Under the pieces are notes generated by a model, which was given only the letters and a program-made list of their open reading frames with translations, was not told where the DNA came from and did no database searches. Positions 4,391 through 54,165 of a stretch of DNA of 64,000 nt are shown here, piece by piece. The position numbers and the translations under genes were made by a program. The DNA comes from Eledone cirrhosa (lineage: Eukaryota), in NCBI GenBank assembly GCA_964016885.1, contig OZ024746.1, positions 95,046,001 through 95,110,000 on the forward strand. Reading direction: 5' to 3'. Every line of letters starts with the position of its first letter. The stretch's first letter is position 1.

Positions 4391-4869
4391 GTTATGTATG
4401 TGTGTATTCCAATTATCACATGATTTATACATATACACTCGCATATACACTCGCATATACACTCGCATATACACACACTTAATACCTAGCCGAACATGAT
4501 AGAAATCTACGCGACGATGCGGTTTCTGCATCATTAGAGTCGTTTTTTCTTCTTCTATAAATGGAAGGGACAACGTATTGCTATTTATCGTTCGGATATG
4601 TTCAACATTGTTACATAATCGCTGTTTTATCAATAGCAGTGTGTGTGTGTGTCTGTGTGTGTCTGTGTGTGTCTGTGTGACTCTGTGTGACTCTGTGTGT
4701 TTGTGTGTGTGTCTGTGTGTGTGTGACTCTGTGTCCGTGTGAGTGTATATGAGTGACTGTGTGTGAATGTGTGTGTGTGTGTATGTAATTGTTGATAACA
4801 TCTAATGCGTGACCAGCCATCACTCACCTCCAAATTTCATGTATGTACATAGAGACAGATGGATAGATT

Positions 4870-5860: not shown

Positions 5861-6043
5861 ATGGATATGTAGACAATGAATGTATGGTAGGCGTTTTTGT
5901 TTGTTTGATTATTTGGAGGTGTGAGCGAATGTATATATGTTTTTCTATATGAGATATCGAGTGGCAGTAACTGTATATGATGGATAGATGCACAATGGGT
6001 GTGTATCCGTTTACCTAGTTTATATATATATATATATTTTTTT

Positions 6044-6112
<69 letters not shown>

Positions 6113-6180
6113 CAAGGTTTAGCAAATAGCGAAAAAGTTTTAAAATAAATTTTTAAAACTTTACTGTACCTACTATATTT

Positions 6181-6264
6181 ACCCTTACCGCGCGGTTTCA
6201 AGTCTCAAAATAAATGGATAATCCATGCGGAAATACATTGAGAAGAAGACTTTCGTCAGAGGGT
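6181..6264 (-). ncRNA. Type I hammerhead ribozyme motif (intact core)
   Basis: Minus strand reads ACCCT-CTGACGA-AAGTCT...AGACTT-GAA-ACCGCGCGGT-A-AGGGT. Stem I ACCCT/AGGGT, stem II AAGTCT/AGACTT, palindromic stem III, GUA triplet. Lies in a ~265-bp insert between (TA)n tracts. Confidence 0.85.
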
Positions 6265-6374
6265 TCTTCTCACTCGGAGAATATAAAATTCCCGAGTTCA
6301 AAACACGGTCTGGCGCCATACAGAACTGTTCCCGGATGATAGTGTATGATGAAGAAACAATCCTATCTAGTGCC

Positions 6375-6434
<60 letters not shown>

Positions 6435-6750
6435 AAGGTATATATTGAGTTAGAAACTCAAAATAGTCTCTTACAATAAAATAGCTCTAAGAAAGAGATT
6501 CTCCCGAGCCGTATACAGGAATTGGTATTTCTATTCACAATTAATATTGCGAAACAGCACCAAAAGCTGTCTGGGTGATTGGTAGTTACCACAATTCCAG
6601 TTTGTATTTATTTTCTTGATTTTTTTCTTAAATTGAGACAGGCAAACCCTATTGTCTATAGCTAGTATTCTTTTCACCTTAGCGAATCTGGTCCCTTGCG
6701 ATTTGAACACATATATGTATATGTCTGTGTTCATTTTTCTTTTATATTCA

Positions 6751-6810
<60 letters not shown>

Positions 6811-6993
6811 GAAAAAGTATGACCCTGACGGCAGAGCTCAAGCCGTTTCGACGGCTATTTCAGTCCAGAAATAGCCGTTGAAACTACATGAGCTCTGCCG
6901 TCGTACTTTTTTCCTATTACCCACTCTACTACCCTAAGTATTCAGTACTCTGGTGCGTTATGGTCCATCTGGTTCCTTAACACAACTCCTTCG

Positions 6994-6995
<2 letters not shown>
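6811..6995. mobile_element. Fold-back palindromic element in TA tract (hammerhead-3'-half family, copy 1)
   Basis: Imperfect ~100-bp palindrome 6811-6913 plus a tail shared with 23817-24012 and 49040-49222. Confidence 0.75.
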
Positions 6996-7027
<32 letters not shown>

Positions 7028-7186
7028 AAATAGTTTTATCGCTCTACATGGATGAATACAAGAAATTTAAATTTGAGTTTTTCGAATAATAACATTTGTG
7101 TCGTTTTCAATTATGCAAACAGCCTCTTAAGCCATGTCAGTAGAATGACCTCGTTATTCTTGCTCTTATGTTGGCATACAAACAGA

Positions 7187-7233
7187 ACGGTAGACACTAA
7201 TGTTTCTGGGTGATTACCCTTCATCAGAACCGT
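7187..7233 (-). ncRNA. Type I hammerhead ribozyme motif
   Basis: Minus strand reads ACGGTT-CTGATGA-A-GGGT-AATC-ACCC-A-GAA-ACA-TTAG-TGT-C-TACCGT. All three stems pair (first stem I pair is U-U); GUC triplet. Confidence 0.8.
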
Positions 7234-7810
7234 ATACCGTTTACCTGCCAACTGTCAGAGCTAGTGAAAATATATGATATTTTCTGGAATATACACTGGG
7301 TTTGCTAACGTGCAGATCTGACAGAGAGAGAGAAAGTGTGTGTGTGTGTTTCGACAGAGCTAGCTGGCAACAGACATGACTCCCTGTGAAATTTGGTAGC
7401 CTCGGCCTCTGAGCTACTTCTGACCTAACACTGCTGGTCTACCTATCTTCAATCACCTCCAATCGCACCCTCATACATACATATATACATACATACATGA
7501 TGGCTGTCCCCTCGTTATCGAGTATGGCCACTGCCGTCGAGGTCATACTTTTTCCTATATATATATATATATATATGCATATACATATGTGTGTGCGTGC
7601 ATCTGTGTACGTGTATGTAAGTATATATATATATGTATTTATGTATGTATATTGTACGCGTGTGTATGCCAGTTGCCATGGTCACAGTAATTAGGTGTGT
7701 GAATGATTACGAACACGAATATAAAAACCTTTAAGTAATGAAAGAGATACGAAACTAATGACTATGCTACGGTTATAACACGGTTTAAGCATCATTGTAA
7801 ATGTTTTTAA

Positions 7811-8389: not shown

Positions 8390-8638
8390 TATATATGAGT
8401 GTGTGCGTGTATATGTATATATATATGTGTGTGTATATGTGTGTGTCTGTCTATGACCAGTGTATATATATCACAGAAACCCACATATATATATCTACAC
8501 ACACATACACATATATATATATGTATACAAACACACACATTTATATATATAGTTACGTTATTCCGGGTTGAATCGGAGGTAACCACAGTAAGTAAGGTAC
8601 TCAATACATAGCAGAGTATAAAAGTGTTAATATAGATG

Positions 8639-8689
8639 AGATTCTACAGGACTAGAACTGTTTCATTCTTTAGAAATCATCAGGAATCT
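8639..8689 (-). ncRNA. Type I hammerhead ribozyme motif inside Helitron
   Basis: Minus strand reads AGATTC-CTGATGA-T-TTCT-AA-AGAA-T-GAA-ACAG-TTCTAGTC-CTGT-A-GAATCT; GUA triplet. Confidence 0.8.
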
Positions 8690-9253
8690 GGCTTTCCAAA
8701 AATAAATAAATGTTGTGGTATTTATATCTTTTCAAGTGATAGGACAGGGTGGGGAGTGGGATGGGTAGAGGTCATTGGTTGATAGAAAGGGAATTCATTA
8801 AAAGCTAATTCTTTAAGGCTTATAATTTATATTTAGAGTAACAAAGGCAGAAAGAATTCTATAAACAAGTTTAGAATGGGGTGCCACTCCTTATTTTTAA
8901 GTTTCTCTTAAGCTAACAATGCCTATATTTCAGGTGTCTATAAGATCGTTGGGGGTCGGTCATGGTTGATGGATTTAAAGAAAAGGGAAATTCTTTAAAA
9001 GCTAATTCTTTAAAGTTCTACTTAGAGTGACAAAGGCCTAGAGAATTCTGTAAACCAGTTCAAAATATTTGTTTCTACTTTAGGCACAAGGCCAGCAATA
9101 ACCCAGTTCATTACTGGTACTTTATTTTATCGACCCCGTAGGGATGAAAGGCAAAGTCAACCTCGGCGGGATTTGAACTCAGTTCAAAATATTGGGTGCC
9201 TATCATATCATTAACTTCAAATTTCTCTTAAGCTATATTCCAGGTGTCGACAG

Positions 9254-16519: not shown

Positions 16520-17023
16520 CTAACAGCGCTGCGATCGAATGTGGCTTTTTAGCCCAGCCAATGATCTAAAATGTCTTGCACAGAGCCGGCAACCAAAACA
16601 TTCACTGGAAATAGTCGGCTGTGGTTGGAGTTCATGTACTTTTGCATGTCGCTTGAGCCCTCCTGCTGATTTACATTCTCTACCACATGCTTGGCAAGCA
16701 CGATGAGTAGCATCTCCAACAGCAGCCTGGTAGTCAACCACTGGTCTTACTTTATGACTGCGAAGATGACTTTCGAGTCCAGCTTTGCTTAGGCAGAGTC
16801 TCGCACAGACGCTGCATGTTAGCACCATAGGAACACCCTCGCCGTCTGGAAGTGCAACAGCAATGTCCTTCCTCACATCCCGCTTTACTTTCTCGTATGC
16901 GATTCGAGATGCCTCAAAGGCAACTTTTCCCTCATATACAGTCTTTCTCCATTTATTACGATCAGCAGCAATATATTCCCTTGTATCAGCAGAGATGTTA
17001 GCGTCTTTCAAAGAGGTTTTCAA
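16520..17023 (-). mobile_element. RTE-clade LINE ORF C-terminus with three C2H2-type zinc fingers
   Basis: A.DR..WR motif typical of RTE C-termini, then CxxC-x12-HxxxH twice and a third finger ending HxxxQ. 5'-truncated and flanked by microsatellites. Confidence 0.7.
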
Positions 17024-17470
17024 TCCTTATACCTCTTTTTTGGTTTAACATACATACATACATACATACATACACACATACACACATACACACATACATA
17101 CATACATACATAGCTACCTAGTTGATGTTGTCTAAATCTCAATGGAAGAGACTCTCTCTGTTGGTAAAAAAATTATAAACTAATGAAACCAGAAGAACAT
17201 ACATACAAACATACACACATAAACACACGCACATACATACATATATACCTAGCATACATTTATACACACGCATGCATATACATACATACATACATACATA
17301 CATACATACATACATACATACATACATACATACATACATACATACATACATACATACATACATTACCTATGTCCACTTTTTCCGTCTCCAGGGGTATCCG
17401 ATTTTCTCAACTATGTATTATATATATATTGACCGACCGTTATTCTGGTCATTTCGGCGCTGAGACTATA

Positions 17471-23816: not shown

Positions 23817-24009
23817 ACCAAATAAAGTGTGGTAAGGAACCAAGTGAACTATAACGCACCAGAGTACTCGATACTTAGAGTAGTAGAGAGGGTAATAGGA
23901 AAAGAGTCAAGACCCCGACGGCTGAGCTCCGGCTGTTTCGACAGCTAGATCAGTTCGGATCTAGCTGTCGAAATGGCCGGAGCTCGGCCGTCGGGGGCCT
24001 CACTCTTTT

Positions 24010-24012
<3 letters not shown>
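23817..24012. mobile_element. Fold-back palindromic element (copy 2, opposite orientation)
   Basis: Palindrome ~23898-24012; tail is the reverse complement of the tail at 49160-49222. Confidence 0.75.
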
Positions 24013-24045
<33 letters not shown>

Positions 24046-24861: not shown

Positions 24862-25458
24862 TGGTGGATTGGCAGTATCGGTAGAGAGTCGGACGCCATG
24901 CTTTGCAGCATAGAGTTACGGCTCTTTATGATCTGAGTTCAAATCCCGCCGAGGTTAACTTTGCCTTTCATCCTTATGGGGTCACTAAAATAAAGCACCA
25001 GTAATGTACTGGGGTAGATTTAATCGACTTTCCCCTCCCTTGTGCCTATACTTGAAATCATTGTTAGGGCGGTGGATTGGCAGAATCGGTAGAGTCGGAC
25101 GCCATGCTTTACAGCATAGTTACGCCCCTTTACGGTCTGAGTTCAAATCCCGCCGAGGTTAACTTTGCCTTTCATCCTTACGGGGGTCGATAAAATAAAG
25201 TACCAGTAATGTACTGGGTAATTGCTGGCCTTGTGCCTAAAGTAGAAACAATTATTATTATATATATATAAGGGCGGTGGATTGGCAGTATCGGTAGAGG
25301 GTCTGACGCCATGCTTTGCAGCAAACAGATACTGCCCTTTATGGTATGAGTTCCAATCCCGCCAAGTTTAACTTCATCCTTACGTGGTCGATAAAATAAA
25401 GTACCAGTAATACACTGGAATAATTGTTGGCCTTGTGCTAACAGTAGAAACAATTATT
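24862..25458 (+). mobile_element. Three tandem main-family SINEs
   Basis: GGTGGATTGGCAG...GAGTTCAAATCCCGCCGAGG unit repeated three times. Confidence 0.9.
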
Positions 25459-26546
25459 ATACATACATATAAATGTGCATTGTGTATGTATATTTGATGC
25501 AATACAGGCTATTACATCCATAAATGTTTAGTTAGTAGGAACAGGTATAATGCAGAGATCATTAAAACCACTAACTAGAAATATATATATCCGGTTAGAA
25601 AGAAAATCGATATCAGTCATTGACCTTGTATTATTACCACATCATGTGATGAGAATATCAAGTAGCAGAGGAGTTTTTCATTCAATATTCTGTCTTTCAC
25701 AATAATCAATAGGAAACGAGACAAAATTTAGAATAATACCACAAACATTTTTCTTCATTTCAACTGGGTTTACATCCATATCAGAAAAAAAAATCAATAG
25801 TAATTGATGACATATAATAAAAATTAAAAGTTTATTAGATTATAAAGTAGATTGGAAAATTATAAAATTAAATTTTAATATTAATTATTAAGAAAAAAAA
25901 TAATTAATGAAATCATTGTTCATTGACTTGTTGCAAATGAGATAGGAAGAAAGTATTCAGATACCATTAGAAAAATTATGATTATCAAAATTTCCTTACA
26001 ATATAAGCCACATCTCATAAGAGAATGAAGAACCTGAAAACATCTTACAGAATTGATGAGATTGGTAACATTAATGCCTTTAGTCTGAGATAGCTTTTGT
26101 TCACAATATCAATTATACTTTATACTGTACCAGTAAATGAATCACAAGCGTATGTATTTGTTTATGAGTTGTTTAGCCCCATCCTCTTTCGCCGCCTCTT
26201 TTAAACTTACAGTGGATCTTATATATATGTGCTGATAGGAAATGCATAGTCTGCAAAGCTAAGCCCGCAAATTAACTGCAAAACAAATCTTAAATTTTCC
26301 GAGTGCTTTTTAAGTCAACCGCTTTGTTTACACTTCAAGCTACAAGCTTAGAATCCTCTAAAAAGACGGAATTGGTGGCCAGCGGTTCTTTAATGTAGTG
26401 GTTACTGCATTCGTCCAGCATTCATAATGCAGGACTTCATTCCTCACAGACATCTGTGTTCAGTTATTTCCGACTCCAGATGTACTGTACTCGATTCTTC
26501 AAATAATATTTATAATGATTTACTATTATTTATTATTATATTCTTA

Positions 26547-35815: not shown

Positions 35816-36068
35816 TTCTTCTACATCGCTACACTGAGCTTCTCGACTGCTCACAGATCCCACAACTGTTCAATGCTAGCTGGGGCATGTATGTCGTACA
35901 TGTGAGCTGGTAAGATGGTATTCCTTAGTGAACATTTAAAACATTATTTCCAAATATAACAGTGTGGTGGAGTAATTCATCTCTTGTTTTTGTCGTTGCC
36001 TTCAACTGGGATTTTATTAGAGAAAATTTGATGAATTTTGTGTCAGTAAGATCATGAAATACTTTTTG

Positions 36069-37678
36069 TTAAAAATATAGTTCCCGTGTTACTGTTGTTG
36101 GTGTTGTTGTTACTGTTGTTGGTGTTGGTGTTGGTGTTGTTGTTACTGGTGTTGGTGTTGTTGTTACTGTTGTTGGTGTTGGTGATGTTGTTACTGTTGT
36201 TGGTGTTGTTGTTGGTGTTGTTGTTACTGTTGTTGGTGATGTTGTTACTGTTGTTAGTGTTGGTGTTGGTGTTGTTGTTGTTGTTACTGGTGTTGGTGTT
36301 GGTGTTGTTGTTACTGGTGTTGGTGTTGTTACTGTTGTTGGTGTTGTTGTTACTGGTGTTGGTGTTGTTGTTACTGTTGTTGGTGTTGGTGATGTTGTTA
36401 CTGTTGTTAGTGTTGGTGTTGGTGTTGTTGTTGTTGTTACTGGTGTTGGTGTTGGTGTTGTTGTTACTGGTGTTGGTGTTGTTGTTACTGTTGTTGGTGT
36501 TGTTACTGTTGTTGGTGTTGTTGTTACTGGTGTTGGTGTTGTTGTTACTGTTGTTGGTGTTGGTGATGTTGTTACTGTTGTTAGTGTTGGTGTTGGTGTT
36601 GTTGTTACTGGTGTTGGTGTTGTTGTTACTGTTGTTGGTGTTGTTGTTACTGTTGTTGGTGTTGTTGTTACTGGTGTTGGTGTTGTTGTTACTGTTGTTG
36701 GTGTTGGTGATGTTGTTACTGTTGTTGGTGTTGGTGTTGGTGTTGTTGTTACTGGTGTTGGTGTTGTTGTTACTGTTGTTGGTGTTGGTGATGTTGTTAC
36801 TGTTGTTGGTGTTGTTGTTGTTGTTACTGGTGTTGGTGTTGGTGTTGTTGTTACTGGTGTTGGTGTTGTTGTTACTGGTGTTGGTGTTGTTGTTACTGTT
36901 GTTGGTGTTGGTGATGTTGTTACTGTTGTTGGTGTTGTTGTTACTGGTGTTGGTGTTGTTGTTACTGTTGTTGGTGTTGGTGATGTTGTTACTGTTGTTG
37001 GTGTTGTTGTTACTGTTGTTGGTGTTGTTGTTACTGGTGTTGGTGTTGGTGTTACTGTTGTTGGTGTTGGTGGTGTTGTTACTGGTGTTGGTGTTGTTGG
37101 TGTTACTGTTGTTGTTACTGGTGTTGGTGTTGTTGTTACTGGTGTTGGTGTTGTTGTTACTGGTGTTGGTGTTGGTGGTGTTGTTACTGTTGTTGGTGTT
37201 GGTGTTGTTGGTGTTACTGTTGTTGGTGTTGGTGTTGTTGTTACTGGTGTTGGTGTTGGTGGTGTTGTTACTGGTGTTGGTGTTGTTGGTGTTACTGTTG
37301 TTGTTACTGGTGTTGGTGTTGGTGGTGTTGTTACTGTTGTTGGTGTTGGTGTTGTTGGTGTTACTGTTGTTGGTGTTGGTGTTGTTGTTACTGGTGTTGG
37401 TGTTGGTGGTGTTGTTACTGTTGTTGGTGTTGGTGTTGTTGGTGTTACTGTTGTTGTTACTGGTGTTGGCGTTGTTGTTACTGTTGTTGGTGTTGCTGCT
37501 GTTTTTGTTGTTAATTTTGTAGCCACTGTGGCTGCTGTTGCTGCGCCTGCTGTTGCTGCTGTTGTTACTGTTGTTGTTGTTACTGTTGTTGGTGTTGGTT
37601 CTGGCGTTACTGTTGTTGTTGCTGCTGCCGTTGTAGTTGTAGCTAAGTTAGCTGCTGCTGTTGTACGACTTAGCTCAC
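36069..37678 (-). CDS. Putative exon encoding a Thr/Pro-rich mucin-like (PTS) domain
   Basis: ~1.6 kb open frame of PTPTTVTT-type repeats with a less repetitive start (GELSRTTAAANLA), directly after a plausible acceptor TTCTCAATTACAG. No other exons identified; could be a pure trinucleotide-derived repeat. Confidence 0.5.
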
Positions 37679-37876
37679 CTGTAATTGAGAACACCTATGA
37701 TCAAAACCTTTCCATTCATGACCACCCCATACTTTTTCCATTTTCTTCACACAGAATCTCTCTAGAATACATTGCCTGCTATGTCCTTCTCTTTTTTAAA
37801 CAATACACTATGATTTGGAGGAGATTTGGTTACTCTTTCTAGCAGGTCCCTATAAAAGTGTGATTTTGAGACGGTG

Positions 37877-46012: not shown

Positions 46013-46581
46013 CTAGCAGAATGGCCCGGCGTTGCTCGGGATTTCCTCTGGGGTTCTTATATATTTGATATATATTTATTCTTATCGAGCCTCGTGAAAT
46101 AAATACGTTTGTTTATATTTTGTTATTGTGTATGCAAAAATATCTGTACACGAATATATATATATATATATATATTTCGTTTCTGAATTTGTTTAGCAAG
46201 ATTCTTTATCTGAAAACGTGTGTTGAAACCGATATTGTTATGCTTTGGGAGGATCAAGTTGCCAATAAGAAACACACGCACCAGTTGCTTTCACTTCAAT
46301 TTATTATAAATTAAATTTATAAATTTCCGGTAGTATAGGAGAACGGATAAATGAATACTGGCGAGAGCATCAAGATAGTAAAGAATCATCTGTACTCCAC
46401 CAACATGCTAAAATAGAACATAAGGTCCTTAGGGCATTGAAAATTTGAATTTCTTTTTGCTCAGAACACTCAATAGTACTATAAGTATTATATGTGTAAA
46501 GTTTGAAAACAATCGGTTGTGTGGTTCTCGAGTTTTAGTGATTGTACAGACAGACAGACATTCTCTGTTTTAGTAATATAG
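46013..46581 (-). mobile_element. Non-autonomous Helitron
   Basis: Minus-strand 3' end CCCGAGCAACGCCGGGCCATTCTGCTAG|T; 5' end CTATATTACTAAAACAGAG. Confidence 0.8.
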
Positions 46582-49039: not shown

Positions 49040-49222
49040 AACGAGTAGGACCCCGACGGCTGAGCTGAAGCCGTTTCGACGGCTAATTCTGGACTAGAAT
49101 TCTAGTCCAGAAATAGCCGTCGAAACGGCTTGAGCTCAGCCGTCAGGGCCCTACTCGTTCCTATTACCCACTCTACTACTCTAAGTATTGAGTACTTTGG
49201 TGCGTTATGGTCCATCTGGTTC
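49040..49222. mobile_element. Fold-back palindromic element (copy 3)
   Basis: ~120-bp near-perfect palindrome centred on GAATTC at 49097-49102. Confidence 0.8.
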
Positions 49223-49240
49223 CTTACCTCATTTCCTTCG

Positions 49241-49298
<58 letters not shown>

Positions 49299-49385: not shown

Positions 49386-49468
49386 CGTTATTCCGGGTTG
49401 AATCGGAGGTAACCACAGTAAGTAAGGTACTCAATACATTGCAGAGTATAAAAGTTTTAATATAGATG

Positions 49469-49570
49469 AGATTCTACAGGACTAGAACTGTTTCATTCTT
49501 TAGAAATCATCAGGAATCTCAGATTCTGATGATTTCTAAAGAATGAAACAGTTCTAGTCCTGTAGAATCT
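49469..49570. ncRNA. Divergent pair of hammerhead motifs (49469-49519 minus, 49521-49570 plus)
   Basis: Same sequence as 8639-8689, duplicated in inverted orientation within the palindrome 49452-49587; the plus copy lacks one C of stem I. Confidence 0.8.
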
Positions 49571-49937
49571 CATCTATATTAAAACTTATATATATATATA
49601 TATATGGGCCTTCCAGTTTCATTTCACATTATATACATGTCTGTGTATATTTTAATTATTTAAAAATTATTTTTAAGTGAACGGGATTTTTTTTTAATAT
49701 TTTGAAGTGAACATGACCCAACGGGTCACAGGTGGTCTAGTTCGATATAAAGTTCACGAATGCATTTTAAATAAATATTTGCTTCAAATTTGAACGTCTA
49801 CTATTGATATGGTATTTTGGATTCTAGTGTGGATTTTTGCCTCTTAAAAATAGATTCCATTTAATTGCCGAGTCCATAAATTTAACCTAAATAAATTGGA
49901 CTATTCAACTTTTACATGATTATATACTTTAGACATA

Positions 49938-51049: not shown

Positions 51050-52262
51050 TAATTGTTTCTACTATTGACACAAGGCCAGCAAATACCCAGTGCATTACTG
51101 GTACTTTATTTTATCGACCCCGTAAGGATGAAAAGCAAAGTAAATCACGGTTCTAAGATAATGGAATAAAATAATGGTCAAGGCCAGCAATTTGGGGGAG
51201 GGGAAAGTCGATTATATCGACTCCAGTACATTACTGGTACTTTATTTTATCAACCCAGTAAGGATGAAAGGCAAAGTTAACCTCGGCAGGATTTCAACTC
51301 GGATCATAAAGGGACGTAACTCTATGCTGTAAAGCATGGCGTCCGACCCTCTACCGATACTGCCAATCCACCGCCCGTAATGGAATAAAATAATGGTTTC
51401 TGAAAGCGTGTGGCTTAGTGGTTAAAAAGTTGAATTCGCAATCGGGAGGTTGTGAGTTCAATTCTCGGACTGGTTGATGTGTTGTGTCCTTGAGCAAGAC
51501 ACTTTATTTCACGTTGTTCCTTCTGTCACGAGTCGCGACCGGTAGATAGTGTCAACAATGGAAAGACCAATGGAAACATTGTTTCCTTGGTCCGATTTGA
51601 CGAGGTCCACCCCACTCGGCAACCAAATGAGGTCTGGGATCTTGTCGATCGATCAGAGTGAGAGCATTACTGGTACTTTATTGTATCGACCACATAAGGA
51701 AGAACGGCAAAGCTAACCTCGGCGAGATTTGAATTCAGAACGTAAAGGGTCGTAACTCTAAGCTGCTAAGCTTGTTGTCCAACGCTCTACTGATTCTGCC
51801 AATCCATCGCCAAAATAATGATTTTTACTTTAGGCACAAGGCCAGTAATTTGGGGGAGGGGAAAGTCGATTAAATCAACCCCAGTGCATTACTGGTACTT
51901 TATTTTATCGACCCTGTATGGATGAAAGGCAAAGTTAGCCTCGGTGAGATTTGAACTCAGAACGTAATGGGCCGTAACTCTATGCCGCTAAGCTTGTTTC
52001 CAAAGCTCTACCGATACTGCCAATCCACCATCAAAATAATAATTTCTAGTATAGGCACAAGGCCAGTAATTTGGGGGTAGGGAAAAGTTGATTAAATCGA
52101 CCCCAGTACGTTACTGGTACTTTATTTTATCGACCGCCCCCCCGTAAGGACGAAAGGCAAAGTTAACCTCGGTGGGATTTGAACTCAGACCGTAAATGGC
52201 CGTAACTCTATGCTGGAAAGCATGGCGTCTGACTCTCTACCGGTGCAGCCAATTCACCGCCC
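51050..52262 (-). mobile_element. Cluster of ~5 main-family SINEs plus a SINE head of another family
   Basis: Repeated ACTGGTACTTTATTTTATCGACCC...GGATTTGAACTC. Confidence 0.88.
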
Positions 52263-54129: not shown

Positions 54130-54165
54130 TCTTCTGATGAAGGACTAGTGTCCGAAACGTTAAGA
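54130..54165 (+). ncRNA. Minimal type I hammerhead ribozyme (tandem copy 1)
   Basis: TCTT-CTGATGA-A-GGAC-TAGT-GTCC-GAA-ACGT-T-AAGA. Confidence 0.8.

Follow-up and report, generated by a model that had tools for sequence, protein, structure and literature searches.

The window, by which we mean the whole 64-kb stretch of DNA analysed, is AT-rich animal DNA dense in microsatellites and SINE-like repeats. Near its start a short insert separates two TA-rich tracts, and its minus strand, read as RNA, has a hairpin at each end and a third in the middle.

6111..6375, minus strand: whole insert, 265 nt, non-repetitive, 38% G+C, single copy in the 64-kb window
6376..6432: pure (TA)28.5 tract on the 5' side of the RNA, likely insertion target
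6021..6110: mixed TA/TTTA tract on the 3' side of the RNA, likely insertion target
6312..6374, minus strand: 5' terminal hairpin with many G.U pairs (z -4.12 on the minus strand versus -0.38 on the plus strand)
6272..6297, minus strand: middle hairpin, abutting the candidate pseudoknot strand described below and having base 6272 in common with it
6114..6185, minus strand: 3' terminal hairpin (z -2.92), beginning exactly at the predicted cut site

The coordinates and strand given for this insert in a preliminary description proved right. Because both ends of the insert run into AT, they are uncertain by a few bases, and no target-site duplication was readable in the TA/TTTA tract (6021-6110). 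Both ends coincide with hairpin bases, an arrangement in keeping with a discrete element no less than with a truncation: the 5' hairpin begins at the second base of the insert, and the 3' hairpin, which contains a perfect 12-bp inverted repeat (6134-6145 / 6151-6162), stops three bases short of the TA tract. BLASTN of the insert within the 64-kb window returned only short AT-rich matches; neither a second copy nor a tandem of it was found. There was no terminal repeat between the first and last 60 nt, whose longest common word is 5, and no inverted 5' copy in the insert, unlike the second copy of family B and the members of family C described below. G.U wobbles numbered 11 on the minus strand versus 4 on the plus strand (strand-neutral count, p 0.059, with one of the four alignments in the wrong register), and we do not take this as a sign of A-to-I editing.

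On its minus strand the insert carries a complete type I hammerhead, with all consensus core positions present (core consensus from Perreault 2011: C3 U4 G5 A6 N7 G8 A9, G12 A13 A14, A15.1, U16.1, H17).

6260..6264, minus strand: stem I, 5' strand, pairing with 6185-6181 (5/5 Watson-Crick)
6253..6259, minus strand: catalytic core CUGACGA (C3-A9)
6247..6252, minus strand: stem II, 5' strand, first pair A-U
6214..6226, minus strand: near-palindrome within loop II, forming a 5-bp hairpin or an intermolecular duplex (-14.4 kcal/mol)
6200..6205, minus strand: stem II, 3' strand
6196..6199, minus strand: GAAA (G12, A13, A14, A15.1)
6187..6196, minus strand: palindromic stem III, 3 bp plus tetraloop in the monomer, 10 bp in a dimer
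6185..6186, minus strand: predicted cut at a GUA site, 3' of A17 (6186)
6181..6185, minus strand: stem I, 3' strand, with 6118-6114 as alternative partner once the tail is complete

The three stems (5, 6-7 and 3 pairs) close around the core and are open at stem I, with no core-adjacent mispair. Stem II has six Watson-Crick pairs, to which a seventh, U.G, may be added, and loop II measures 41 nt (6246-6206). The core, the 5-bp stem I, the 6-bp stem II, the insertion of ~40 nt and the GUA site reported earlier are all present, although what had been called a long stem II is in fact a short stem (6-7 bp) bearing a long loop. The 10-nt palindrome is likewise perfect, but in the monomer it yields just 3 pairs, and its ten pairs form only between two molecules; the corresponding energies are -0.9 kcal/mol for the monomer, with its GCGC tetraloop, versus -19.9 kcal/mol between two molecules. 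Pair 10.1-11.1 is A-U rather than the conserved G10.1-C11.1, a G-C pair described as highly conserved (Cervera 2014, PMC4209133), though not obligatory.

A hammerhead descriptor written after the motif had been seen, and allowing an 80-nt spacer, matched four times in the real window versus a mean of 0.045 in block-wise (local) dinucleotide shuffles of it (n = 400). The hammerhead of 6111-6375 scores 16, and 0/400 shuffles reach 12. Rfam gave nothing at gathering level in the whole window, missing the other descriptor matches as well, and there was no hammerhead among 39 weak Rfam matches in 6000-7100; the curated models therefore miss the 6111-6375 hammerhead.

Other inserts in TA tracts of the same window also carry hammerheads, some of them with the inverted 5' copies typical of Penelope-like elements (PLEs).

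8556-8690 and 49386-49586, minus strand: family B, TA-tract inserts, each holding an intact type I hammerhead, with the cores placed at 8683 and 49513
6811-6994, 23825-24014 and 49040-49241, with a fragment at 7531-7561: family C, palindromic TA-tract inserts
54134 and 54422, plus strand: two copies of a minimal hammerhead of PLE type that has a palindromic ACGU core; stem III is changed in the second
7227 (minus strand) and 256 (plus strand): hammerhead-like motifs with one defect each

Family B consists of two copies with 98.5% identity across 134 nt, the second of which bears an inverted 5' copy that is almost perfect. The arms of family C lack CUGANGA; they do contain GAAA and GUC, together with a longer stem III whose loop is palindromic. 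These inserts are probably the 3' halves of hammerheads left by 5' inversion, with the tail on one arm only. Of the two defective motifs at 7227 and 256, one has an apparent core-adjacent U.U in stem I (by eye) and the other a core mismatch. The distance from the core to the TA tract on the 3' side is 149 nt for 6111-6375, and 132, 128, 135, 125, 203 and 62 nt for six further inserts with hammerhead-like motifs.

Missed by the preliminary description is a further helix, which joins the 5' flank of stem I to the start of loop II and could form a pseudoknot.

6265..6272, minus strand: 5' flank of stem I, candidate pseudoknot strand, pairing with 6246-6239
6239..6246, minus strand: first 8 bases of loop II, second pseudoknot strand

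The two strands (6272-6265 / 6246-6239) form 8/8 Watson-Crick pairs with no linker on either side. In 20,000 shuffles, a comparable helix occurred anywhere at a frequency of 0.0058, with a short flank linker at 0.0024, and with both linkers of 3 nt or less at 0.00035, in a test devised post hoc, after the helix had been seen. In known hammerheads, an activating pseudoknot joins the distal side of stem I to bases directly downstream of stem II and forms ahead of the rest of the ribozyme, and such pseudoknots occur in ~40% of hammerheads (Perreault 2011, PMC3088659). By analogy with these, a pseudoknot on the two strands would probably help hammerhead cleavage in the parent element.

The same eight pairs could instead close a hairpin that is inhibitory, sequestering the core and acting as an off switch, whichever element carries it. 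We consider this rather unlikely, even though the 8-bp helix dominates every free fold, with a pair probability of ~0.9 for 7/8 pairs in the circular ensemble, and in the minimum free energy (MFE) structure it is extended by one more pair, the ninth, at the expense of one base of stem I and one of stem II. An alternative tertiary structure is reportedly able to attenuate a satellite-RNA hammerhead, which counts toward an inhibitory role. Conversely, stems I and II can form intact alongside 8/9 of the pairs, and the helix has the register of the activating pseudoknots in Perreault 2011 (PMC3088659). ViennaRNA cannot score pseudoknots, so that its preference for the hairpin is biased.

Folded as a whole, the minus strand of the insert is strongly structured (z -4.2 to -4.3 as a linear molecule, with 0/200 shuffles as stable), more so than the plus strand (z -2.5). 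The circular fold (z -4.08, mean pairing 65%) equals the linear fold at a cost of 6.6 kcal/mol, and there is no end-to-end pairing in it: the first 20 nt and the last 20 nt pair with a probability of at most 0.0002. On both flanks of the cut site, bases have alternative partners: stem III can pair with 6309-6303, and the 3' strand of stem I with 6118-6114.

6303..6309, minus strand: alternative partner of the 3' part of stem III (6193-6187), 7 pairs, non-cleaving fold

The hammerhead lay 2.7-8.8 kcal/mol above the ensemble in 5/5 contexts, and even with a rough pseudoknot term was still 3.6-9.9 kcal/mol above the MFE, in energies that omit Mg2+ and tertiary stacking. Activity is thus not supported by the folding models. 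The insert had been put forward as the best single candidate for activity, which the modelling does not show. The stretch proposed for this (6170-6275) is no more stable than its shuffles (z -0.56) and does not take up the hammerhead fold. The insert does have the top stem score of the four descriptor matches, yet the minimal hammerhead at 54134 was modelled as about equally accessible. None of four hammerheads compared was the dominant fold, and that of 6111-6375 was modelled as more accessible than that of family B.

When two nascent copies (6375-6176) were co-folded without constraint, both intermolecular stems I and the 10-bp stem III formed, with stem II out of register; a double hammerhead was formed in only 1/3 co-fold contexts. 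In these models the stem III palindrome favours the dimer. In the literature, animal PLE hammerheads cleave at low rates, dimers included (Cervera 2014, PMC4209133), one PLE hammerhead needed the protein of its element to cleave (Frangieh 2024), and no cleavage was seen for 8/9 of the retrozyme dimers predicted in frogs (Li 2026 preprint, 10.64898/2026.07.22.740005).

Searches for coding remnants bore out the earlier description of the insert as non-coding: its three open frames have no Pfam match, and two of the three are without a credible homologue. A word-indexed search restricted to near lengths gave no protein match for the 62-aa minus-strand frame or the 51-aa plus-strand frame. An exhaustive search with the 62-aa frame returned two proteins, which were rejected as spurious, being translations of tandem repeats with weak summed scores and no Pfam family. 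Pfam likewise found no PLE reverse transcriptase or GIY-YIG domain in 216/218 filtered frames of the window, the remaining 2/218 being the insert's own. By eye, the frame at 46323-46445 (plus strand) recalls the GIY-YIG endonuclease of PLEs; Pfam gave no match for it. The window also contains, on the minus strand, a LINE-like C-terminal frame with C2H2 zinc fingers (16520-17026) and a long Thr/Pro-rich repeat frame, mucin-like or plain minisatellite (36050-37690). At 24863-25472 and 51664-52213 there are tandem arrays (periods 204 and 222) of a SINE-like repeat that is abundant, with more than 20 matches in the window.

Several other identities for the insert were tried and dropped. A Pol III-transcribed SINE with a hammerhead, of the Schistosoma Sm-alpha type, was rejected, as 0 A-boxes and 0 B-boxes were found on the minus strand; the minus strand of the insert contains six runs of at least four T, and a lone B-box-like word lies on the plus strand. 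A SECIS element in the 5' hairpin was dismissed by eye, with no AUGA/GA core on the folded strand that fitted the consensus. A sigma-70 scan was at chance level, for a bacterial signal that is irrelevant to an animal. One exact gapped pattern had 0 matches in bacterial and archaeal genomes, and BLASTN of the insert against phages and plasmids gave no match.

On balance, we read the insert as the 5'-truncated 3' end, or solo pseudo-LTR, of a PLE that was put into a (TA)n tract. The link to PLEs or retrozymes drawn in the preliminary description is supported by the context (TA-tract insertion and neighbouring hammerhead inserts), with a retrozyme monomer fitting somewhat less. The solo pseudo-LTR fits somewhat better because there is no tandem, no terminal redundancy and no end-to-end circular pairing. 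Consistent with such an origin, the tail after the hammerhead is short, with 75 nt between the cut site and the TA tract. Inverted 5'-truncated copies, one-sided tails and (TA)n targeting occur in Naiad and Hydra elements, including octopus families (Craig 2021, PMC8557442), and genomic PLE hammerheads are mostly single motifs from truncated elements (Cervera 2014, PMC4209133). A PLE protein studied in purified form nicked AT-rich DNA, and its reverse transcription began at internal sites that lie downstream of the hammerhead (Frangieh 2024). In the Hydra-1_Obim consensus, the stop codon is roughly 125 nt from the core, measured by eye (Craig 2021, PMC8557442); no coding remnant is therefore expected in the 116 nt upstream of the insert's core.

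If this is correct, the hammerhead of the parent element would cut a multi-unit precursor RNA after GUA. During transcription the 8-bp helix would form first and hold stems I and II side by side, so that the pseudoknot might stand in for the usual loop-loop contact. Pairing of two copies by way of the 10-nt palindrome would favour cleavage, or cleavage might be confined to a brief interval before the 3' hairpin captures the 3' strand of stem I, after which the RNA would settle into its non-cleaving fold. Target-primed reverse transcription would start ~75 nt downstream of the cut site, copy ~265 nt and stop, with 5' truncation at a hairpin. We infer these steps from the cited families, and the insert itself contributes its sequence features alone. 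Alone and lacking a recognisable promoter, the insert is probably inactive or slow, except where a host transcript reads through it.

Set against this reading, a chance arrangement of motifs in AT-rich DNA is barely credible: the long spacer gives freedom and there is no Rfam hammerhead match, but the observed score of 16 compares with 0/400 shuffles at 12, and the 8-bp helix and the overall fold each add a signal of their own. It is very unlikely that the host has co-opted the ribozyme to cut its own pre-mRNA, as amniote intronic hammerheads do. A possible exon with AG/GT ends does lie downstream in the direction of the hammerhead (4487-4621, minus strand), but this 45-aa open frame has no homologue or family, leaving the exon unsupported, and the locus lies in a microsatellite packed with remnants of mobile elements. 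The insert could in principle be a reverse-transcribed copy of a foreign viroid-like circular RNA, since it resembles such RNAs in size, strong folding and two-state design. This is more improbable again, as the hammerhead is present on one strand only, the fold is branched and not rod-like, and the phage, plasmid and bacterial genome collections yielded no match.

The main rival, which we doubt, makes the insert a lone non-LTR retrozyme monomer, discrete, non-autonomous and ~265 nt long. The hammerhead would then cut the transcript of a tandem array elsewhere into unit-length pieces, which a host ligase would close into circles for re-insertion by PLE proteins, and the non-cleaving best fold would protect the circle. 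The 265 nt and 38% G+C are within the ranges given for retrozymes, 170-400 nt and below 45-50% (Cervera 2020, PMC7229834). The fold is strong and strand-specific (z -4.24), with 65% mean pairing in the circle and alternative partners for both cut-site flanks, and dispersed monomers are common and related to pseudo-LTRs (Li 2026 preprint, 10.64898/2026.07.22.740005). However, no head-to-tail arrangement, tandem or second copy was found in the 64 kb, the ends neither repeat (longest word 5) nor pair in the circle (0.0002), and the circular fold is only the linear one plus 6.6 kcal/mol. Retrozymes seem derived from pseudo-LTRs (Li 2026), which makes the two readings close kin.

Hammerheads are already known to be abundant in PLEs and retrozymes, and with several in this window one more copy is ordinary; the architecture, and not one more copy, is what would matter. 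The literature surveyed describes no animal mobile element that combines a 41-nt loop II and an 8-bp pseudoknot, and searches pairing octopus with hammerhead or ribozyme brought up no report of one. Partial precedents are the long loops II of spike-moss PLEs and the pseudoknots common in hammerheads outside repeats. Read from the sequence of a single copy, the architecture is a candidate. In the literature, the PLE hammerheads of animals are characterised as minimal, weak and dependent on dimers, and cleavage was not needed for PLE insertion in vitro (Frangieh 2024). More speculatively, and with the probability against it, the insert may belong to an undescribed family of small circular RNAs or pseudo-LTRs marked by the 8-bp pseudoknot, fast cleavage as a monomer and strands that switch the ribozyme off after cleavage. 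Expanded hammerheads of this kind would escape Rfam and descriptors with a 7-17 nt spacer; were this true, some animal PLEs reported as having no hammerhead or a 'half core' would carry working ones, and a family would amount to a class missed by standard searches. A Watson-Crick pseudoknot and a defined off-fold are easy to test by compensatory mutation.

Among cephalopods, O. vulgaris has 31 recently active Penelope-like families in a repeat annotation from 2026, whose main text leaves ribozymes unmentioned, and the giant squid genome paper counts 235 Rfam hammerhead loci. By eye, the insert is unlike the 3' ends of five cephalopod Naiad consensuses (of which Naiad_Omin is incomplete) and of Hydra-1_Obim. 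Two motifs searched for in the Craig 2021 supplement had 0 matches each, and a 14-nt motif of the octopus Naiad end is absent from the window. The octopus Naiad ends differ from the insert in sequence and in order. In the 3' ends of Naiad_Obim and Naiad_Ovul (Craig 2021), the cleavage and GAAA blocks, judged by eye, precede CUGAUGA; the stem I and stem III strands in these ends are complementary, and stem II fits poorly. This arrangement resembles the non-circularly permuted hammerheads described by Eckert 2023, and it may be that the 'half cores' of Naiad elements are permuted ribozymes.

Other hammerheads with separated core halves offer further comparisons. In PLE-X1_sMoe and PLE-X1_sTam of spike-moss the core halves are also far apart, with loops of ~30-35 nt, and in eight Naiads labelled 'HHR_half_core' they are 35-50 nt apart (Craig 2021). 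These PLE-X1 and Naiad cases are flagged there as deviating or incomplete, whereas in the insert three stems close perfectly round a 53-nt spacer. The discontinuous Clec2 hammerhead of mammals (PMC6155905) also has a large insertion inside the motif, although it is a type III hammerhead in a host 3' UTR with its insertion in helix I, and the insert's is type I with the insertion in loop II. Pseudoknotted hammerheads, human C10 included (Perreault 2011, PMC3088659), have a Watson-Crick helix on the same strands; they are supported by alignment and mutagenesis and lie mostly outside repeats, whereas the helix of 6111-6375 is seen in one copy of an animal repeat. Such an 8-bp helix between flank and loop II is not described for PLE hammerheads in the accessible parts of PMC4209133 and PMC8557442.

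With animal retrozymes (PMC7229834; 10.64898/2026.07.22.740005) the insert has in common its size, low G+C, non-coding nature and strong self-pairing, as well as a type I hammerhead whose stem III consists of 2 bp and a tetraloop. It departs from them in having no tandem array in the window and in the replacement of the canonical loop 1/loop 2 contacts by a long loop. Compared with a full PLE, the insert has no ORF or second pseudo-LTR attached, and pair 10.1-11.1 is A-U; loop II, at 41 nt, compares with 3-10 nt in the Hydra rows of Craig 2021 (PMC8557442). CUGACGA followed by UGAA on the far side is also found in Hydra-2_aJap (Craig 2021, PMC8557442). Like the hammerheads of PLE pseudo-LTRs (Cervera 2014, PMC4209133), that of the insert is of type I, with a stem I of 4-5 bp and a long-ish stem II, and like PLE pseudo-LTRs themselves (PMC4209133; PMC8557442) the insert combines a palindromic stem III, a solo copy, a (TA)n target and a short tail after the cut.
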